This document shows, one piece after another, positions 2,789 to 39,844 of a DNA stretch of 64,000 nt. The translations under genes and the position numbers were made by a program. Source of the stretch: Phycisphaerales bacterium. GTDB lineage: Bacteria; Planctomycetota; Phycisphaerae; Phycisphaerales; UBA1924. How positions within the stretch are numbered: position 1 is the first letter of the stretch; each line of letters begins with the position of its first letter. The stretch spans positions 54,792 through 118,791 of the forward strand of contig JABWBB010000008.1 of the NCBI GenBank assembly GCA_013360675.1, given 5' to 3'. Under the pieces are notes generated by a model. The model made no database searches. It had not been told where the DNA came from and worked only from the letters and a program-made list of their open reading frames with translations.

Positions 2789-5230
2789 ATGAACCCACGC
2801 GCGATCGGCTTCTTTGGCGTCTTGTTCACGACCGTTGCCCTCCACGCGGCCCCGCCCGAAACGAAGCGCGAGCCCGTGACCGACACGCTGCACGGCGTGA
2901 AGCTGGTGGACAACTACCGCTGGCTCGAGGGCGACAACAGCGATCCCAAGGAGATGGGAAAGCTATCGCCCGAGGTCGCCGCGTGGACCGACGCGCAGAA
3001 CGCCTACACGCGTGGGCTGCTCGACACGCTCCCCGGGCGCAAGGCCCTCGAAGACCGCATCCGCCCGCTGATGGAGATCGGTTCGATCACGGCCCCGGCG
3101 ATGCGCCGCAACCGGTATTTCTATACGCGGCGCGAGGGGAAGGAATCGCAGCCCCGGGTCTTTGTGCGCGAAGGGTACAAGGGCGAGCCGCGACTGCTGC
3201 TCGATCCGGGCGCGCTCGACGCCGACGGGCTGACGGCGCTGGGCGGGTATTGGCCCAGCCAGGACGGGAAGTACCTGGCATTCGGGCTGTACCGGGCGGG
3301 CGATGAAAACACCACGGTCTATGTCATGGACGTGGACACCGGGCACTGGCTCGCCGACGAGATCCCCGGCAAGGCGGGGGGCGTGAACTGGATGCCCGAC
3401 AACAGCGGGTTCTTCTACGAGCGCCTGGCGGACATCAAGAACCCCTATTCGGCGCAGGTCAAGTTCCACCGCTTGGGCACGCACCAGCGGATGGACCCGA
3501 TGCTCTTCCGCCAGTACACCAAGGAAGAGAACGAAAAACTGGCGACCACCTGGGGCCCCGGCGCGTCGATCTCGCGCGACGCCCGCTGGATGATCCTCTC
3601 CTACTGGACGGGCACCTCATCGAATGACATTTGGTGCATCGACCTTGATCGCTGGTTCCGCACGGGCGAATTCGTCAAGAACGAGATCATGGTCGGCGCG
3701 GATGCCACCTTCGGCGGCTCGGTTGTCGGCGACACGCTGCTCATGCAGACCAACCACGAAGCACCCAATGGCAAGGTGGTCGCGGTCGATCTCAACAACC
3801 CGGCCAAGGCGAACTGGCGTGAGTTCATCCCCGAACGCAAGGACGCCGTGCTCGATTCGTTCTCGGTGGCGCGCGGCGTCATCGCCGCCGACTACCAGGA
3901 AAAGGCCACCACGCGCTACATGCTCTTTGACATGAGCGGCAAACCCCTGTCGAACCTTGCGCTGCCGGGCATCGGCTCGGCGGGTCTCCAGACGGAGGAG
4001 GACCGCACCGAGGCCTTCCTTACGTTCACCAGTTTCAACTACCCCAACACCGTCTTCCGCGTGGACCTGGCCAACCCCGGCGCGGCCCCCGAGTTGTGGG
4101 AGCGTCCTGCCGTTCCGGTTGATCCTGATACGGTCGAGGTCAAGCAGGTGACGTATTCGTCCAAGGACGGCACGCCCGTCACGATGTTCATCGTGCACAA
4201 GAAGGGCCTCGTCCTCAACGGGAACAACCCGACGATTCTCAATGGCTATGGCGGGTTCAATATCTCGATGAACCCGTCATTCTCCGCCACGCTCTTCCCT
4301 TGGTTTGAGGACGGCGGGGTTTTCGCCTTGCCCAACCTGCGCGGCGGGGGTGAGTACGGCAAGGCCTGGCACGAGGGCGGGATGCTCGCCAACAAGCAGA
4401 ATGTCTTCGACGACTTTGCCGCCGCGGCGAAGTACTTGTTCGAGCAGAAGTACACCAACCCCTCAAAGTTGGCGATCACGGGCGGATCGAACGGCGGTCT
4501 GCTGACAGGCACGCTGGTGACGCAGAACCCGGACCTGTTCGCGGCGGCGATCGTCGCTGTGCCGCTGCTCGACATGATCCGCTATCAGGACTTCCTGATG
4601 GCGCGGTACTGGGTGCCCGAGTACGGGACTGCCGAGAACAAGGACCACTTCGAGTTCATTCTCAAGTACAGCCCCTACCAGAACATCAAGGCGGGCACGA
4701 AGTACCCGGCGGTGATGGTGACCGCGGGCGAGAATGACACGCGGGTGCACCCGATGCACGCGCGGAAAATGGCCGCCGCACTTCAGGCTGCGACAGCGTC
4801 GGATCCCAATACGCGTCCGGTGCTGCTGTGGGTGGACCGTGAGGCGGGGCACGGGCAGGGCAAGCCCCTGCACCTGCGCCTGCGGGACATCGTCGATCAA
4901 CGCATGTTCATCATGTGGCAGTTGGGGATGATCCCCGGCAAGCCTGTATCGGCCCTGCCCGGTGATGAAGCGGCGCATGCCGCGGCCCCGATCGCGGCGA
5001 TGGGCGCGATGCGGAGCCTCTCGTTCAACGTCAAGGGGATGACCTGCGTGGGGTGCGCCGCCGAGGTGGAGGAGATCCTGGGTGCATTCGATGGCGTCGA
5101 AAGCGTGAAGGTCGATCTCAAGGGCGCCAAGGCCAAGGTCAATCTGCGCGACGGGGCCAGCCCCGACGTGAAGGCCATGGTGAGCTCGCTCAAGGAGAAA
5201 AAGTTCACCGCCACGGCGACGGGCGGGTGA
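2789..5230 (+). CDS. Secreted prolyl oligopeptidase (S9A family) with C-terminal heavy-metal-associated (HMA) domain
   Basis: N-terminal signal-like MNPRAIGFFGVLFTTVALHA. POP N-terminus DNYRWLEGDN. Catalytic Ser motif ITGGSNGGLL, plus ENDTRV and GHG near the C-terminus of the hydrolase domain. The last ~73 aa (nt ~5009..5227) have an HMA pattern with GMTCVGCAAEVEEIL. Confidence 0.9.
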   Translation: MNPRAIGFFGVLFTTVALHAAPPETKREPVTDTLHGVKLVDNYRWLEGDNSDPKEMGKLSPEVAAWTDAQNAYTRGLLDTLPGRKALEDRIRPLMEIGSITAPAMRRNRYFYTRREGKESQPRVFVREGYKGEPRLLLDPGALDADGLTALGGYWPSQDGKYLAFGLYRAGDENTTVYVMDVDTGHWLADEIPGKAGGVNWMPDNSGFFYERLADIKNPYSAQVKFHRLGTHQRMDPMLFRQYTKEENEKLATTWGPGASISRDARWMILSYWTGTSSNDIWCIDLDRWFRTGEFVKNEIMVGADATFGGSVVGDTLLMQTNHEAPNGKVVAVDLNNPAKANWREFIPERKDAVLDSFSVARGVIAADYQEKATTRYMLFDMSGKPLSNLALPGIGSAGLQTEEDRTEAFLTFTSFNYPNTVFRVDLANPGAAPELWERPAVPVDPDTVEVKQVTYSSKDGTPVTMFIVHKKGLVLNGNNPTILNGYGGFNISMNPSFSATLFPWFEDGGVFALPNLRGGGEYGKAWHEGGMLANKQNVFDDFAAAAKYLFEQKYTNPSKLAITGGSNGGLLTGTLVTQNPDLFAAAIVAVPLLDMIRYQDFLMARYWVPEYGTAENKDHFEFILKYSPYQNIKAGTKYPAVMVTAGENDTRVHPMHARKMAAALQAATASDPNTRPVLLWVDREAGHGQGKPLHLRLRDIVDQRMFIMWQLGMIPGKPVSALPGDEAAHAAAPIAAMGAMRSLSFNVKGMTCVGCAAEVEEILGAFDGVESVKVDLKGAKAKVNLRDGASPDVKAMVSSLKEKKFTATATGG

Positions 5231-28566: not shown

Positions 28567-30162
28567 TTAGGCCCCATGCGACACCGGGTCAACTTTCCGG
28601 CCTTGTCCCGCCAGGCACACCAGTGTTGCCACGCACGTCCCGATGACCAGTTGCCACGGGAAGGCCATTTTGAACTCGGGCAGTGACACCATCCCCGCCA
28701 GCCCCGTGCGAAGCAATACCCAGACCGCCGGCTGCATCACCAGGACGACGCCAAACCCCGCGATCAACGCCGCCACGGCGCTGGTCTCATTCCCGAACCG
28801 GGTGAACAGCGCCGTCAGAAAGACCCCCAGCAGCCCGGCATAGGCGAACGACATCACCCCCAGGGCGAACTCCACGAGCGTGTTGTTCTCCGGGTCGTAC
28901 CAGAGGATGCACAGGCTGGCAAAGCCGCCCAGCACCACCCCGGCGCCCACCACACCACCCCGGGCCACGCGCAGGTAGTGTCCCTCGGCGTGCCCAGGCC
29001 GCCACCCCCGGTACAGGTCTGTCACAAATGTGGACGACATCGCGTTGAGCGTCGAGTTCACCGTCGACAGCCCCGCCGCGAAGAGCCCCGTCATGACCAG
29101 TCCGCCCAGCCCCGGAGGCAGGTGGTGCATCACGAAACTCACGAACAAACCCATGCGGCTGGGCGCTTCGACGCTCCGCCCCGTCAGGTCCGGGCGCTGG
29201 TAAAACACCCACAGCAAAAGCCCGATCGCCAGGAAGACCGCCACCGTCGGCACCCCAGCCAACACTCCGCCGATCACCGATCGCGCCCCCTCCTTCGCGC
29301 TGCGGCAGGTCAGCATCCGCTGCACCAGGTCCTGGTCCGTCCCGTGCGAGGCCACGATCAACAGCATCAACCCCGTCACGCTCGTCAGCAGTGTGAAGCT
29401 CTTGCTCGCGTCAAACCCATACAGCGGCTTGCCAGGATCGATTCCAACATCGATCAACGTCAACTTGCTCGCGAGGCCCGCCCCGGGCTCGCGCCACGCC
29501 GCGATGATCGAACTCCAATCGGAGGGCATCAGCCACACGAGATACACCAGCACGCCGCCCGCCGCCCCGACATAGACGGTGGCCTGCAGCACGTCGGACC
29601 AGATCACGCTGCGGATCCCGCCCGCCAGTGTGTAGCCGATCCCGATGGTCGTCATGACGACCACGCCGCCCACCAGGTGCAGGGGCTCCACATCGCCGAA
29701 GAGAATCAACGATGCCGGCACCGATCCGATGAACACCCGCGCCCCGCCCGCGAAGACGCGTCCGATCAGGTACGTCACGCTCGCGGCATGCTTGGCCCGC
29801 ACCCCGAACCGCCGTTCGAGCAGTTGGTAGGGCGTCGAGCACTCGTGCCGATAGAACGCCGGAATAAAGACCCAAGCGAGCACCACCGCCGCCAGTATGC
29901 CGCCGATGGTCCCCGAGAGGTACGTCAGGTTGCCGTAATACGATGACTCGGGCACGCCGACAAAGGTTGCAGCAGATTGGGCCGTGGCGAGCACCGAGAT
30001 GGCCACCGCCCACGACGGCATCGATCGCTTCGCCAGGAAGTAATCGCCCGTGTCGTGCTGCTTGCGCCGATTGATGAACAACCCCGAAACCAGCAGCATC
30101 AGCCCGTACGCCCCGAGCACGCCCCAGTCGATCCATCCCAGGGCACCTAGCGTGAGCGGCAT
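28567..30162 (-). CDS. Sodium:solute symporter family (SSF) transporter
   Basis: 531-aa polytopic protein with about 13 hydrophobic segments and an SSF-like N-terminal region (YFLAKRSMPSWAVAISVLATAQSAATFVGVPE). Confidence 0.85.
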   Translation of the reverse strand: MPLTLGALGWIDWGVLGAYGLMLLVSGLFINRRKQHDTGDYFLAKRSMPSWAVAISVLATAQSAATFVGVPESSYYGNLTYLSGTIGGILAAVVLAWVFIPAFYRHECSTPYQLLERRFGVRAKHAASVTYLIGRVFAGGARVFIGSVPASLILFGDVEPLHLVGGVVVMTTIGIGYTLAGGIRSVIWSDVLQATVYVGAAGGVLVYLVWLMPSDWSSIIAAWREPGAGLASKLTLIDVGIDPGKPLYGFDASKSFTLLTSVTGLMLLIVASHGTDQDLVQRMLTCRSAKEGARSVIGGVLAGVPTVAVFLAIGLLLWVFYQRPDLTGRSVEAPSRMGLFVSFVMHHLPPGLGGLVMTGLFAAGLSTVNSTLNAMSSTFVTDLYRGWRPGHAEGHYLRVARGGVVGAGVVLGGFASLCILWYDPENNTLVEFALGVMSFAYAGLLGVFLTALFTRFGNETSAVAALIAGFGVVLVMQPAVWVLLRTGLAGMVSLPEFKMAFPWQLVIGTCVATLVCLAGQGRKVDPVSHGA

Positions 30163-30348: not shown

Positions 30349-30996
30349 CTACCGCCGGCGACGAATCCCCATCAGCCCCGCGCCCAGCAGCAGCGACGTG
30401 CCCCCCGGCGAGGGCAGCACGCGGATGTCGCTCACCACCCACGTCAACATGGTGGTGGTGGGGAAGGGGAGTTTCACGATCGAGATGTCGACCAGCGTCT
30501 CGCCGAACGCGCCAAACCCGACATAGACGGGCACTCCGGGTACCACGCCGGGTACCACGATCGTGTGCGAACTGACCGTGCCCACCGCCGTGATCGAGAA
30601 CGAATGCGTGGACCCCGACTCGGCCTCCAGGAAGAAGTCGATCGCCGTCGCCCCGACGGGCGGCACCACGTCCGATCCTGCAATCCCGCCCGGCCCGCCG
30701 ATCGGCAGCGCGTGGAACGCCCCCGACATGAACGGTGTGCCCGGCGCTACCCGGTCATGGCTGGGCATGAACCCCATCGAACCGATTGGCGTCGCGAGAG
30801 GCATGCCCGGCGTCAGCGACGGCGGGTGGCCGTAGATTGCGCCCAGTGGCGAACCGTCGCCCGGGACGACAAGAAGCGGCGTGCCCATCGCGAGATCCAG
30901 CGCCGGCGGAGCAAACGAAGAAAAAATGGCGCCAGAGGCCTGCGAGACCATCCAACCAAGGCCAGCCGCGGCGATCATCATTCCTGCGGATTGCAT
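30349..30996 (-). CDS. PEP-CTERM-type sorting-signal protein (PSP variant), secreted
   Basis: ATG 30996 with AGGAGG upstream. Signal MQSAGMMIAAAGLGWMVSQASG. C-terminus VLPSPGGTSLLLGAGLMGIRRRR (motif, TM helix, Arg cluster). Confidence 0.7.
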   Translation of the reverse strand: MQSAGMMIAAAGLGWMVSQASGAIFSSFAPPALDLAMGTPLLVVPGDGSPLGAIYGHPPSLTPGMPLATPIGSMGFMPSHDRVAPGTPFMSGAFHALPIGGPGGIAGSDVVPPVGATAIDFFLEAESGSTHSFSITAVGTVSSHTIVVPGVVPGVPVYVGFGAFGETLVDISIVKLPFPTTTMLTWVVSDIRVLPSPGGTSLLLGAGLMGIRRRR

Positions 30997-31535
30997 CTCG
31001 ATCCTCCTCTCACACTCGTGCGCGCCATCAGGCCCACGGCCCGCTTGATACAGAATCTCCAACGACGATTCTCGTGGACGTTCACGCGCAGGCAATGGGT
31101 ATTCAGGGGATTCACTTCAAACTGAGTAATTGGGAATCGCAGCAATGAACCTCACTAAGGCCCCGTATTGCAACGTGCACAATGTATGCAATTGTTGGAT
31201 GTGACGTACCCACTGCTGGGTCGCTTCAGCGCGGTGCGATTAAGCTGTACTGCTTGCCGTTGATGCCTACCGCCTGGCACTGCCTGTCAATGCCGTTCCG
31301 CATGCATCGGCCGGGGTGATGTACGTTGCGCAACGACATCGCCCAAGACACCGCAGAGCATGCAATGAATACAGGCTCACCCCATTGGGCAGTGGTGGCT
31401 AGTGACGAGTTGTGAGCGACGAAACAGTGGGGGTAGCCGGGGAGGAGCCCGTTGAGCACCCTCCAAGGACGGCGATAGGCCTGATTGGCCTCTCGTGGCT
31501 CTTCATGAGCCACCCAATCCCGTCGACCGCTTCAG

Positions 31536-31625
31536 TCAAAAAAGGAAACGACTCGGTCGCGTGTTTCCGCCCGCGGCCGAGTCGTAGGAGGAGAGAGAGA
31601 CAAGACGCCGTCACAAGGGGTGGCC
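31536..31625 (-). ncRNA. Candidate small RNA, copy 1 (CU-rich anti-SD-like tract, hairpin, U-tail)
   Basis: In minus sense: GUCUUGUCUCUCUCUCCUCCUAC, then hairpin GACUCGGCCGCG-GGCGGAAACA-CGCGACCGAGUC (31550..31583), then GUUUCCUUUUUUGA. The 5' end is unknown. Strand was chosen because of the U-tail. Confidence 0.35.
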
Positions 31626-31649
31626 CGCTTTTCAGCCGGCCCAGTCAAC

Positions 31650-31735
31650 CCTTAGTTCAAACCCGGCTACGTGTTTCCGCCCGCAGCCGAGTCATAGGAG
31701 GAGAGAGAGACAAGACACCCACAACATGCCACACG
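31650..31735 (-). ncRNA. Candidate small RNA, copy 2 (sibling of copy 1)
   Basis: A 50-nt block (31670..31719) matches 31560..31609 with 3 mismatches. The hairpin ACUCGGCUGCG-GGCGGAAACA-CGUAGCCGGGU (31661..31692) is retained although its 3' arm lies outside the repeat and differs in sequence. The U-tail is weak. Confidence 0.3.
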
Positions 31736-31891
31736 ATTCGGACGTTGCCACCAATCGTGCCGGTTTTTCCGTTTATTCCGCCCCGCCGTCGCGCAAGGGT
31801 TGTGTTCGCAGTGTGTTACGGCCACGGAAAAACGCGCCGCGACGGGCCAAAAACCCCGCTTCCCTTTGAACAAATGGGGTCGTTTTCCCCG

Positions 31892-32698
31892 TCAGGCCAC
31901 CGCCTCGTAGAGTTCCCCCGCCGCCCGCCAGTTCACCAGACCCATCCAGGCCTGAACATAATCCGAACGTCGGTTCTGGTACTTCAGGTAGTAGGCGTGT
32001 TCCCACACATCAATGCCCAGCACCGGGCTGGCGGCGGTGGGGAACATGTCCTGCTGCTTTTCCGTCTGAGTGATCCACAGGCGTCCGCTGGCCCGGTCGC
32101 GCACCAGCCAGGCCCAGCCGCCCCCCTCGACCTGCGCCGCCGCCGCCTTGAAATGAGCCGTGAAGGCGTCGAGCGAGCCAAAGTCCCGGTCGATCGCGGT
32201 GGCGAGTTCACCCGCGGGGCTGCCCCCGCGCCCCGCCGGGGCCATCAGCCGCCAGAAGAGGCAGTGGTTGATGTGCCCGCTGGCGTGGAACGAGAGTTCC
32301 CGTGACCAGTGGCGCACGAGCGACAGATCGCCCCGCCCCTCGCGCAGGCGCTTGAGTTCGCCCAGGGCGGCGTTGAGCCCGGCGACATACGCCGCGTGGT
32401 GCTTGGTGTGGTGGATTTCCATCGTCTGCGCGTCGATCACCGGCTCGAGGGCGTTGCTGGCGTACGGCAGTTTGGGCAATGTGAACTGCCCCGCCCTCTC
32501 GTCCCACCCGAAGGCCTCGGGCCCGAACTCGCCCGACGGTGCCGCACCCGCGGGCACCCTTGGCGCGGGGAGTGACCCGGGTTGTGCGCTCGCACCGGCC
32601 GCGAGGGCGCCAACCCCCGCCAGGCCAAGGGCCGCGAGCGCGGAACGCCGATCGAGCGTGGCAGGCTCGCGCGGCACGTCGTGGTTATGAGTGTTCAT
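31892..32698 (-). CDS. sodA: Fe/Mn superoxide dismutase with twin-arginine (Tat) signal peptide
   Basis: N-terminus REPATLDRRSALAALGLAGVGALAAGASA. The SOD domain begins FTLPKLPYASNALEPVIDAQTMEIHHTKHH. C-terminal motif DVWEHAYYLKYQNRR. Confidence 0.9.
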   Translation of the reverse strand: MNTHNHDVPREPATLDRRSALAALGLAGVGALAAGASAQPGSLPAPRVPAGAAPSGEFGPEAFGWDERAGQFTLPKLPYASNALEPVIDAQTMEIHHTKHHAAYVAGLNAALGELKRLREGRGDLSLVRHWSRELSFHASGHINHCLFWRLMAPAGRGGSPAGELATAIDRDFGSLDAFTAHFKAAAAQVEGGGWAWLVRDRASGRLWITQTEKQQDMFPTAASPVLGIDVWEHAYYLKYQNRRSDYVQAWMGLVNWRAAGELYEAVA

Positions 32699-39117: not shown

Positions 39118-39479
39118 CTGCCTCCGCCGTGCCACCGATGTCTGCCCCGAGACATCGGTGCCTCTTCCCACCGCTCGGCAGACTCAATGCCAAGTGGCCC
39201 GCTCTCGTAGCGAGGCGTCTGCCCTCCGCCGTGCCACCGAAGTCTGCCCTGAGACTTCGGTGCCTCTTCCCGCCGCTCGGTAGACTCGCCGCGTTGTGGT
39301 TGGGCGTGCGGGAGGGTGAGGTAGAATGCGACCCGCCGCCCGCACCGGGGCGTGTGCGAAATGGAAGGGATACCGATGCACTCGAACCGGCAACGACCAA
39401 GACACCGAAGTCTCAAAGCAGACTTCGGTGGCACGAGGTCGCTGACAAGGTTTCGGAGGTTGCTGCCGACTTCGGTGCC
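39118..39479. repeat. REP-like hairpin repeat cluster: two direct ~69-bp units, one inverted copy, one half copy
   Basis: Units at 39118..39185 and 39219..39287. 11-bp stems CACCGA(T/A)GTCT-N6-AGAC(A/T)TCGGTG at 39133..39160, 39235..39262 and 39403..39430. Half copy GACTTCGGTGCC at 39468..39479. Confidence 0.8.
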
Positions 39480-39844
39480 ACCCGCCGAACTGGAGGAGAT
39501 ACCCGTGAATCCGAACCGGGCAGGTGGCCCGACTCTTGATGCAGGATCTGCGTCCAGTGTGCCCCGATCTGACCGTCCGCGGTCAGTCGGGTGAGGAAGC
39601 GGTTGAATGAGTCGCCACGCCCGCGAGGGTTAGAGACGTGGAAGGGGTAACTGTGAGAAGCGCGAACGTGCTGAAGCCGGTATGACTGCGCTGGGAAAGG
39701 GGTAGGGGGGAGACCCTGATACACTTTCCCGACTGACCCCAAGGCCGGTCAGTCGGGGCACTGCGGAAAACACACCGGATCGCGAAAAGAGTCGGGCCAC
39801 TCGCCCGATCATGGATTGTGAGCGCATCGAAAAGGTGGAGCAAG

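Follow-up and report, generated by a model that had tools for sequence, protein, structure and literature searches.

The locus described here, a short tandem repeat in a non-coding gap of a planctomycete genome, raises the question of whether such an element encodes regulatory RNA and, if so, how many transcripts it yields and which genes they would control. The window in which it lies (the whole stretch of 64,000 nt that was analyzed) had received an initial annotation that proposed two sibling small RNAs (sRNAs) at this site. As that annotation claimed, positions 30997..31891 are non-coding and contain a 50-nt repeat core that recurs with a 110-nt period and differs at 3 positions; the gap is flanked by a superoxide dismutase (SOD) gene and a gene starting at 30996, both on the minus strand, and a repeat search extends the units to 59 nt (31551-31609 and 31661-31719; 88% identity, period 110). 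The minus-sense build that had been ascribed to the units is present in both copies, GUCUUGUCUCUCUCUCCUCCUA followed by a hairpin with the loop GGCGGAAACA, as are the differing 3′ arms (CGCGACCGAGUCGU versus CGUAGCCGGGUU), the C-G to U-A double change in the stem and, at copy 1, an intrinsic terminator in which the hairpin is followed by UUCCUUUUUUGA and which is flagged by a terminator scan. The copy 1 hairpin was also recovered as an inverted repeat (31548-31561 / 31572-31585) with 14-nt arms that are 93% complementary; in the direction of the predicted RNA, which is the order used below, this copy is the second module.

31892-32698, minus strand: gene for a Tat-signal Fe/Mn SOD (Pfam Sod_Fe_N and Sod_Fe_C)
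31695..31716, minus strand: module 1 seed, GUCUUGUCUCUCUCUCCUCCUA, at the putative 5′ end of the RNA
31660..31693, minus strand: module 1 hairpin, with 5′ arm GACUCGGCUGCG, loop GGCGGAAACA and 3′ arm CGUAGCCGGGUU
31607..31659, minus strand: inter-module spacer, for which a small hairpin of its own is predicted and whose sequence is not conserved
31585..31606, minus strand: module 2 seed, the repeat copy of GUCUUGUCUCUCUCUCCUCCUA
31548..31585, minus strand: module 2 hairpin, which is also the terminator stem, with 14-nt arms of which 13/14 positions are paired
31536..31547, minus strand: U-tail UUCCUUUUUUGA, from the terminator scan
30349-30996, minus strand: gene for a PEP-CTERM-type protein, 540 nt downstream of the RNA element

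The module 1 hairpin contains G-U pairs and lacks a strong U-tail, and the 3′ end of the spacer is GACGGC, directly before the second seed. The 200-nt region that holds the two modules is present once in its own 2.9-Mb genome, and no further occurrence of the core CTCTCTCCTCC was found when both strands of this genome were searched. Elsewhere in the window, a hairpin-rich spacer at 39118-39760 was considered and is unrelated to the sRNA element.

Comparative analysis indicates that the element is widespread within one family of bacteria. BLAST against 40 relatives found it in 13 other genera of the same family, and an Infernal search of relatives with a covariance model of one unit, built from 21 units, detected it with strong covariation in 77 of 151 Phycisphaeraceae genomes, or 67 of 138 genera. 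The 77 genomes contain 1 to 5 units each, always in tandem at one main locus, and an order-wide sample of 200 genomes yielded no matches outside the Phycisphaeraceae. The exact 22-mer of the seed occurs in 70 GTDB contigs, all but two of which are labelled Phycisphaerae, Phycisphaerales, Phycisphaeraceae or Planctomycetota (the two differently named contigs are "Leptolyngbya sp. PLA1" and "Tepidisphaera sp."), and in 46 metagenome contigs; a scan of the metagenomes for transcript-like short contigs returned solely genomic contigs > 1 kb. Across 115 distinct units the seed is near-invariant over all 22 nt, GUCUUGUC included. A permissive E-value scan of Rfam 15 assigned the element to no known family; the best match, to a Giardia snoRNA model (E = 0.39), scored 22.6 bits where the gathering score is 100. 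The dispersed genomic copies that would mark a mobile repeat, a caveat of the initial annotation, are absent: there is a single place in the own genome and one locus per relative genome, so the element is not a MITE or REP. Its uniqueness in its own genome, its conservation across genera and its covarying stem together argue that it is more than a chance repeat.

The covariation that had been proposed from the two copies in the window is borne out by the alignment of the 115 distinct units, in which double (compensatory) changes are seen at 9 of the 10 stem pairs. Of the cells of the 10-bp stem, 94.8% are paired, a value that 0 of 500 shuffles equaled, and controls in which the arms were slid gave 27-39% pairing. 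The stem cells also include 152 G-U but 18 A-C combinations, and these counts, with the terminators, place the RNA on the minus strand of the window and disfavor the plus-strand-only transcription that the initial annotation had kept as an alternative; on the opposite strand, the 152 G-U cells would become mismatches. In addition, the module 1 hairpin (31660..31693) is predicted to fold in the minus sense and not in the plus sense, and the two seeds have predicted mean unpaired probabilities of 0.79 (module 1) and 0.77 (module 2), against 0.50 overall. On this comparative sequence evidence, the element is a conserved, structured, predicted RNA gene on the minus strand and represents a new family in the Phycisphaeraceae (Planctomycetota).

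The number of transcripts can be addressed from the sequences that surround the units. A conserved alignment places a promoter-like block before the first module, and the positions of this block and of the terminator predict the extent of the RNA:

31723..31770, minus strand: promoter-like block before the first module
31764-31768, minus strand: A-tract within the block
31745-31750, minus strand: -35-like TGGCAA within the block
31723-31728, minus strand: -10-like CATGTT within the block
31536..31716, minus strand: predicted primary transcript of ~181 nt with two modules

The 17-nt spacer of the block ends in TGG, and the putative +1 lies 6 nt downstream of the -10-like CATGTT. The consensus over ~60 distinct loci consists of an A-tract, cTGGCAc, ~13 nt, GTGGCAYNTT, 6-7 nt and GTCTTG, which fits a putative σ70-type layout (a -35-like hexamer and a -10-like CAYNTT that are separated by 17 nt with an extended TG), so the seed would sit at the very 5′ end of the RNA. 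A σ54 promoter reading of TGGCAC was tried and rejected, since there is no TTGC at the right spacing and the arrangement of -35, 17-nt spacer and extended -10 fits. A genome-wide regular expression for the block gave 201 matches versus 77 in the control, mostly coding-region noise, and is too loose for a promoter-defined regulon to be claimed.

By eye, the block stands upstream of the first unit only and is found before 0 of 34 internal units, which in other genomes are preceded instead by the spacer hairpin and a short YTTCGACGRW. At 61 loci, the last unit is followed by a direct U-run, or by a separate GC hairpin plus U-run within ~130 nt, and the non-terminal units mostly lack U-tails; these loci have one module (32 loci), two (24), three (4) or four (1). 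A genus with complete genomes (G066 and G167-G169) has a one-module version (L123, L125), and the predicted size is ~70 nt for each module. A promoter block at the first unit only and a terminator at the last unit only point to one modular transcript, and the repeat in the window most likely gives rise to a single predicted RNA that contains both modules and is not a pair of sibling genes. The sibling sRNAs of the initial annotation are thus not supported, the internal units having no promoter block and the copies no promoter and terminator each of their own, but the read-through dimer for which it had allowed corresponds to the one-transcript reading. Two other features of the region are of note. 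At the module junctions of a series of relatives (loci L059-L122), YTTCGACGRW lies directly 5′ of GUCUUG, where it may belong to the spacer hairpin or serve as a processing site to free monomers that share their 5′ end with the primary transcript. A small hairpin, GGGG-AAAACGA-CCCC, then AUUUGUU, immediately follows the stop codon of the SOD gene (31868-31890, minus strand) and is probably the SOD terminator; if so, SOD transcription would be separated from the sRNA promoter.

To what mRNAs the seed could pair was analyzed with 2183 Shine-Dalgarno (SD)-bearing ORFs of the own genome, called by a crude GC3/SD heuristic, of which 41 end in a PEP-CTERM signal. This signal was defined by a C-terminal P-[ETS]-P motif, a hydrophobic helix and an Arg cluster, together with an N-terminal signal peptide, and by PF07589. 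A regular expression finds 41-44 ORFs of this genome that end in ..P.PG...LLGLGGL..RRRR, mostly with signal-peptide-like N-termini, and PF07589 independently matches 31 places at E <= 1 (3 over the cut-off), most of them in these genes. Perfect complementarity to the seed, and the motif GAGAGAC, are distributed as follows among these ORFs:

At least 9 nt of perfect seed complementarity at -25..-1: PEP-CTERM genes 11/41, others 2/2142 (Fisher 2e-18)
At least 7 nt of perfect seed complementarity at -25..-1: PEP-CTERM genes 24/41, others 79/2142 (Fisher 8e-23)
GAGAGAC at -25..-1: PEP-CTERM genes 24%, others 0.3%, other signal-peptide proteins 0.3%
GAGAGAC at -200..-1: PEP-CTERM genes 15/41, others 14/2130 (p = 5e-20)

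In this genome, 7-mer enrichment in the 200 nt upstream of PEP-CTERM genes is confined to complements of the seed. The start regions of these genes have the consensus AGGAGAGAGAC-AUG or GGAGACAAGAC-AUG, so that the seed covers the SD and the entire spacer up to the start codon; examples in the own genome are C39 and C31 for GGAGACAAGAC-AUG and C80, C24 and C79 for AGGAGAGAGAC-AUG. The matches span 9-12 nt, and no target of the full 22 nt with <=5 mismatches was found in the own genome. The PEP-CTERM gene next to the element (30349..30996) has GAGAGGAGGAUCGAG-AUG, which shows modest complementarity to the seed and a duplex of -21 kcal/mol. In several PEP-CTERM leaders, another GA-rich, seed-complementary site precedes that of the start region by 45-175 nt. 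Second or third sites of this kind were seen on contig C39 (gene start at reverse-complement position 4183) and at C32:21474, C19:158653, C60:2523 and C73:142953; such multiple sites could match the multi-module build of the sRNA.

A similar pattern is seen in relatives, for which gene starts were likewise assigned by a crude ORF/GC3/SD heuristic, with at least one erroneous call (at locus L166). Matches to the GA-rich complement in a short-query BLAST fell in PEP-CTERM leaders, for example UAGGAGGAGAGAGAGAC-AUG-AAGAC upstream of a protein ending ...VPTPGALALLGMGGLVAARRRR (locus L020), and complementarity of at least 7 nt is found at 7 of 16 PEP-CTERM start regions in a genome of another genus (G082). 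In the 151 family genomes, GGAGAGAGACATG gives 84 matches versus 6 matches of the reversed control, and GAGACAAGAC-N0-2-ATG gives 82 versus 8. The latter discriminates better, since its pairing partner is the 5′-terminal GUCUUGUCUC, which is unique to the RNA of the window. This motif is present in 39 of the 69 genomes that have a strong sRNA match versus 9 of 74 without (Fisher 1.3e-8, a value that ignores kinship, after removal of four matches inside the sRNA loci themselves); the co-occurrence may also arise because the RNA-bearing genomes are related and have inherited the same PEP-CTERM leaders. When 20 matches to GAGACAAGAC-ATG from 20 genomes were sampled, 15 of the 16 that could be determined in sRNA-bearing genomes proved to be the starts of diverse PEP-CTERM proteins (173-426 aa) from different genera, and 0 of 3 from sRNA-negative genomes were PEP-CTERM starts. 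One genome, G004, is a natural variant whose seed lacks GUCUUG, and it has no GAGACAAGAC-ATG match. As a separate observation, the L020 leader (G023:C33), which reads ...GCGUGUUUUCCGCAC...GAGUGUUUCGCG-UAGGAGGAGAGAGAGAC-AUG, resembles the antisense of a whole sRNA module, the complement of the loop included, which hints that the sRNA may have arisen by inverted duplication of a PEP-CTERM leader.

Genomes counted as negative for the RNA of the window contain a second, shorter CU-rich sRNA candidate, here called type B. It consists of a promoter, CCGATA-N-TAYNAT, and of GAUCUCUCUCUCCUCC fused to a terminator hairpin, AGCGGGGCGCC...GGCGCCCUGCUUUU, and was located at L130-L134, L137 and L138 (around position 1500 in each) and at G093:C1:753527-753583. 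An invariant 24-mer of this RNA recurs in 143 of 151 family genomes, mostly as a single exact or near-exact copy and often upstream of a gene for an NAD-dependent epimerase-like protein (GAAGFIGSH); the candidate has no Rfam match and is absent from the assembly of the own genome. Type B shares the core UCUCUCUCUCCUCC with the RNA of the window and not the GUCUUG 5′ end. A GA-rich start-region 13-mer is also found in 21 of the 74 genomes without the RNA of the window, and all 21 are carriers of type B, which explains the generic GA-rich motif in such genomes. In two genomes with type B only (G093 and G120), 1 of 15 PEP-CTERM starts has at least 7 nt of complementarity, in a small sample with at least one mis-called start. 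Variant arrays in which CU-rich tracts alternate with GNRA-capped hairpins, for example UUUUCUCUCUCUCCUCCUCC + GAGUCGAGUGUCGAAAGACAC, were seen at L127 (G105:C1:~323067) and L136 (G075:C1:~491484), in genomes without the version found in the window.

These distributions bear on the proposal that the RNA is a general damper of translation, in which CCUCC would pair with any strong SD and the enrichment at PEP-CTERM genes would be a side effect of their purine-rich leaders. The seed contains CCUCCU, the core of the 16S anti-SD, GGAGG is found upstream of 18% of called genes, and type B, which shares this core, occurs almost throughout the family, all of which would be expected of a damper. Such a function is nonetheless unlikely, since it does not account for the invariance of all 22 nt, including the non-anti-SD part GUCUUGUC, for the fact that 11 of the 13 matches of at least 9 nt are PEP-CTERM genes when other secreted proteins lack the motif, or for the position of the complement of GUCUUGUCUC, which abuts the AUG of PEP-CTERM genes in many genera. 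Therefore, the part of the initial annotation that saw a CU tract complementary to ribosome-binding regions stands, but its generic anti-SD reading does not, the 22-nt seed being specific to the SD-to-AUG interval of PEP-CTERM genes. With these refinements, the sRNA interpretation of the initial annotation is supported, each of the computational checks it had suggested having turned out in favor of it.

The modular build with its recurring loop could also be that of a sponge that titrates a protein, in which the modules would sequester CsrA at the GGA of each loop or else use the CU tract to capture a protein that binds pyrimidine tracts. Sponges of the CsrB/RsmZ type typically contain identical modules in variable number, the loops are mostly GGCGGAAACA and so contain GGA, and the own genome has a FliW-CsrA pair (C32:2854-3640) and a second CsrA-like ORF (C16:16625-16789). 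We regard this proposal as quite improbable, however, because 32 of the 61 loci have a single module with one GGA per module, and because the GGA is lost in several lineages, in which the loop is GCGAAAG or the stem is longer or otherwise capped. We read the loop as a structural, GNRA-like cap and not as a recognition site. The part that is invariant, the CU tract, is not bound by CsrA, no Csr or Rsm model of Rfam matches the element, and a sponge would leave the complementarity to PEP-CTERM genes unexplained.

A cis-acting role, as the leader or attenuator of a downstream gene (a sodium:solute symporter in many relatives), or an origin as a SOD 3′UTR-derived RNA, is very unlikely in view of the neighborhoods in which the element occurs. 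An SSF symporter gene in the same orientation lies downstream at 21 of 70 loci, often within 5-90 nt, and a SOD gene lies upstream at 24 of 70, yet most loci have other neighbors, and at about one third the next ORF is on the opposite strand (by crude ORF calls). The element ends in a strong terminator, has no conserved alternative structure, and keeps its promoter block regardless of the upstream gene. In the window, the PEP-CTERM gene separates the element from the symporter gene (28567-30162, minus strand); the symporter at 21 of 70 other loci also implies that this PEP-CTERM neighbor (30349..30996) is not a conserved partner. That there is no RNA at all, and that the repeat acts as DNA (protein-binding sites or a MITE/REP) or encodes a small plus-strand protein, as could be suggested by a plus-sense unit that reads AGGAGG..., with an NTG 25 nt later, and by a 47-aa ORF (31726-31869), is extremely unlikely given one locus per genome, compensatory stem changes and a strand-specific G-U bias that indicate RNA, and plus-sense ORFs that range from 5 to > 130 aa and are unrelated beyond promoter-encoded residues. 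The ORF at 31726-31869 was rejected as a candidate gene because its conserved NTG is the -10 box and neither its length nor its sequence is conserved.

The reading that we favor, and hold to be reasonably probable, is that the RNA is a trans-acting repressor that occludes the ribosome-binding sites (RBSs) of PEP-CTERM mRNAs by means of tandem seed-plus-hairpin modules. Features common to trans-acting sRNAs are predicted at ~60 loci, which have a promoter-like block and terminator of their own, and the conserved, predicted-accessible seed is complementary to sequences near the RBSs of the putative targets. Because this complementarity is to the ribosome-binding regions of PEP-CTERM genes, the RNA would probably silence that family. 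In such a mechanism, a minus-strand sRNA gene would be transcribed from one conserved σ70-like promoter and end at one intrinsic terminator, to give a transcript of repeated modules, of which there are two here and from one to five in relatives. Every module would present a single-stranded, 22-nt pyrimidine seed, GUCUUGUCUCUCUCUCCUCCUA, held open beside a stable hairpin, and the seed would pair with the SD-to-AUG interval of mRNAs for PEP-CTERM (exosortase-sorted) proteins. This pairing would block binding of the 30S subunit, so that the whole paralogous family would be repressed together. We infer transcription, the exact 5′ end and repression as the sign of the effect from the sequence; by analogy, the inducing signal may be envelope or EPS stress. 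Hfq was not found in the own genome by tblastn with the E. coli and B. subtilis proteins.

A tentative extension of the trans-acting repressor reading, possible rather than probable, is that the RNA is a 'seed-array' riboregulator in which module copy number sets the stoichiometry of silencing and binding is cooperative on PEP-CTERM mRNAs that have a GA-rich site in the leader besides the one at the RBS; the near-universal type B may act jointly with this RNA. If this extension is true, exosortase substrates would have their first post-transcriptional master switch, and Planctomycetota, for which no described sRNA was found in the literature, their first characterized sRNA regulon. Ever since the PEP-CTERM/exosortase system was described, it has been an open question how its substrates are co-regulated outside the Proteobacteria (PMC1569441). 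The locus provides a testable pair of regulator and regulon, in which seed and target sites are defined, the latter directly adjoining the AUG, and in which both module number and seed sequence vary naturally across > 60 genera. It also illustrates how a paralogous family that is defined by a sorting signal can share an RBS 'address' that is readable by one RNA.

Several known systems share parts of this design. The multicopy sRNAs LhrC1-5 of Listeria monocytogenes pair with the ribosome-binding region through redundant CU-rich motifs and block translation of LapB, an LPXTG surface protein; they do not need Hfq and are induced by envelope stress via a two-component system (PMC4132741). The predicted RNA would be like LhrC in directing redundant CU-rich sites against the RBS of one or more surface proteins with a sorting signal. 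It differs in that the LhrC sRNAs are separate genes with three short CU motifs each, whereas here seed-plus-hairpin modules are concatenated in one predicted transcript, with a 22-nt seed at the putative 5′ end of the RNA and in a different phylum; the two have no homology in sequence or structure, and there is no Rfam match that would place the RNA in the LhrC family.

The streptococcal csRNAs of the CiaRH regulon have an unpaired anti-SD stretch beside stem-loops, are predicted to block translation initiation and vary in copy number between species (PMC3091779). The RNA described here shares with them membership of a family of similar sRNAs, an anti-SD stretch that is predicted to be unpaired beside stem-loops, and a variable copy number. 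However, csRNAs carry an anti-AUG (CAU) and a promoter with the CiaR direct repeat, and the present seed stops just before the AUG and follows a TGGCA / GTGGCAYNTT block. An anti-SD without CAU, the different promoter block and the lack of homology separate the RNA from the csRNA family.

RybB is an sRNA of enterobacteria with a seed at its 5′ end. A conserved 5′-terminal seed is likewise found in OmrA/OmrB, also of enterobacteria, which repress many mRNAs for one class of envelope proteins near the translation start (PMC2588501). OmrA/OmrB and RybB-type sRNAs differ from the present RNA in being Hfq-dependent, in having one seed per RNA, in their phylum and in their outer-membrane-protein targets.

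For the PEP-CTERM genes themselves, the sole coordinate control described so far is transcriptional and proteobacterial, and depends on PrsK/PrsR and σ54 sites (PMC1569441). In that description, PEP-CTERM genes are mostly single-gene units with long leaders and a shared cis motif, which implies family-wide co-regulation, and its authors state that other regulators of these genes outside the Proteobacteria remain to be found (PMC1569441). PrsK/PrsR control acts through a DNA motif and an enhancer-binding protein, whereas the motif shared by the planctomycete genes lies at the RBS and is matched by a predicted RNA. The RNA of the window is rather likely to represent a new family of a known kind of regulator, the trans-acting base-pairing sRNA.
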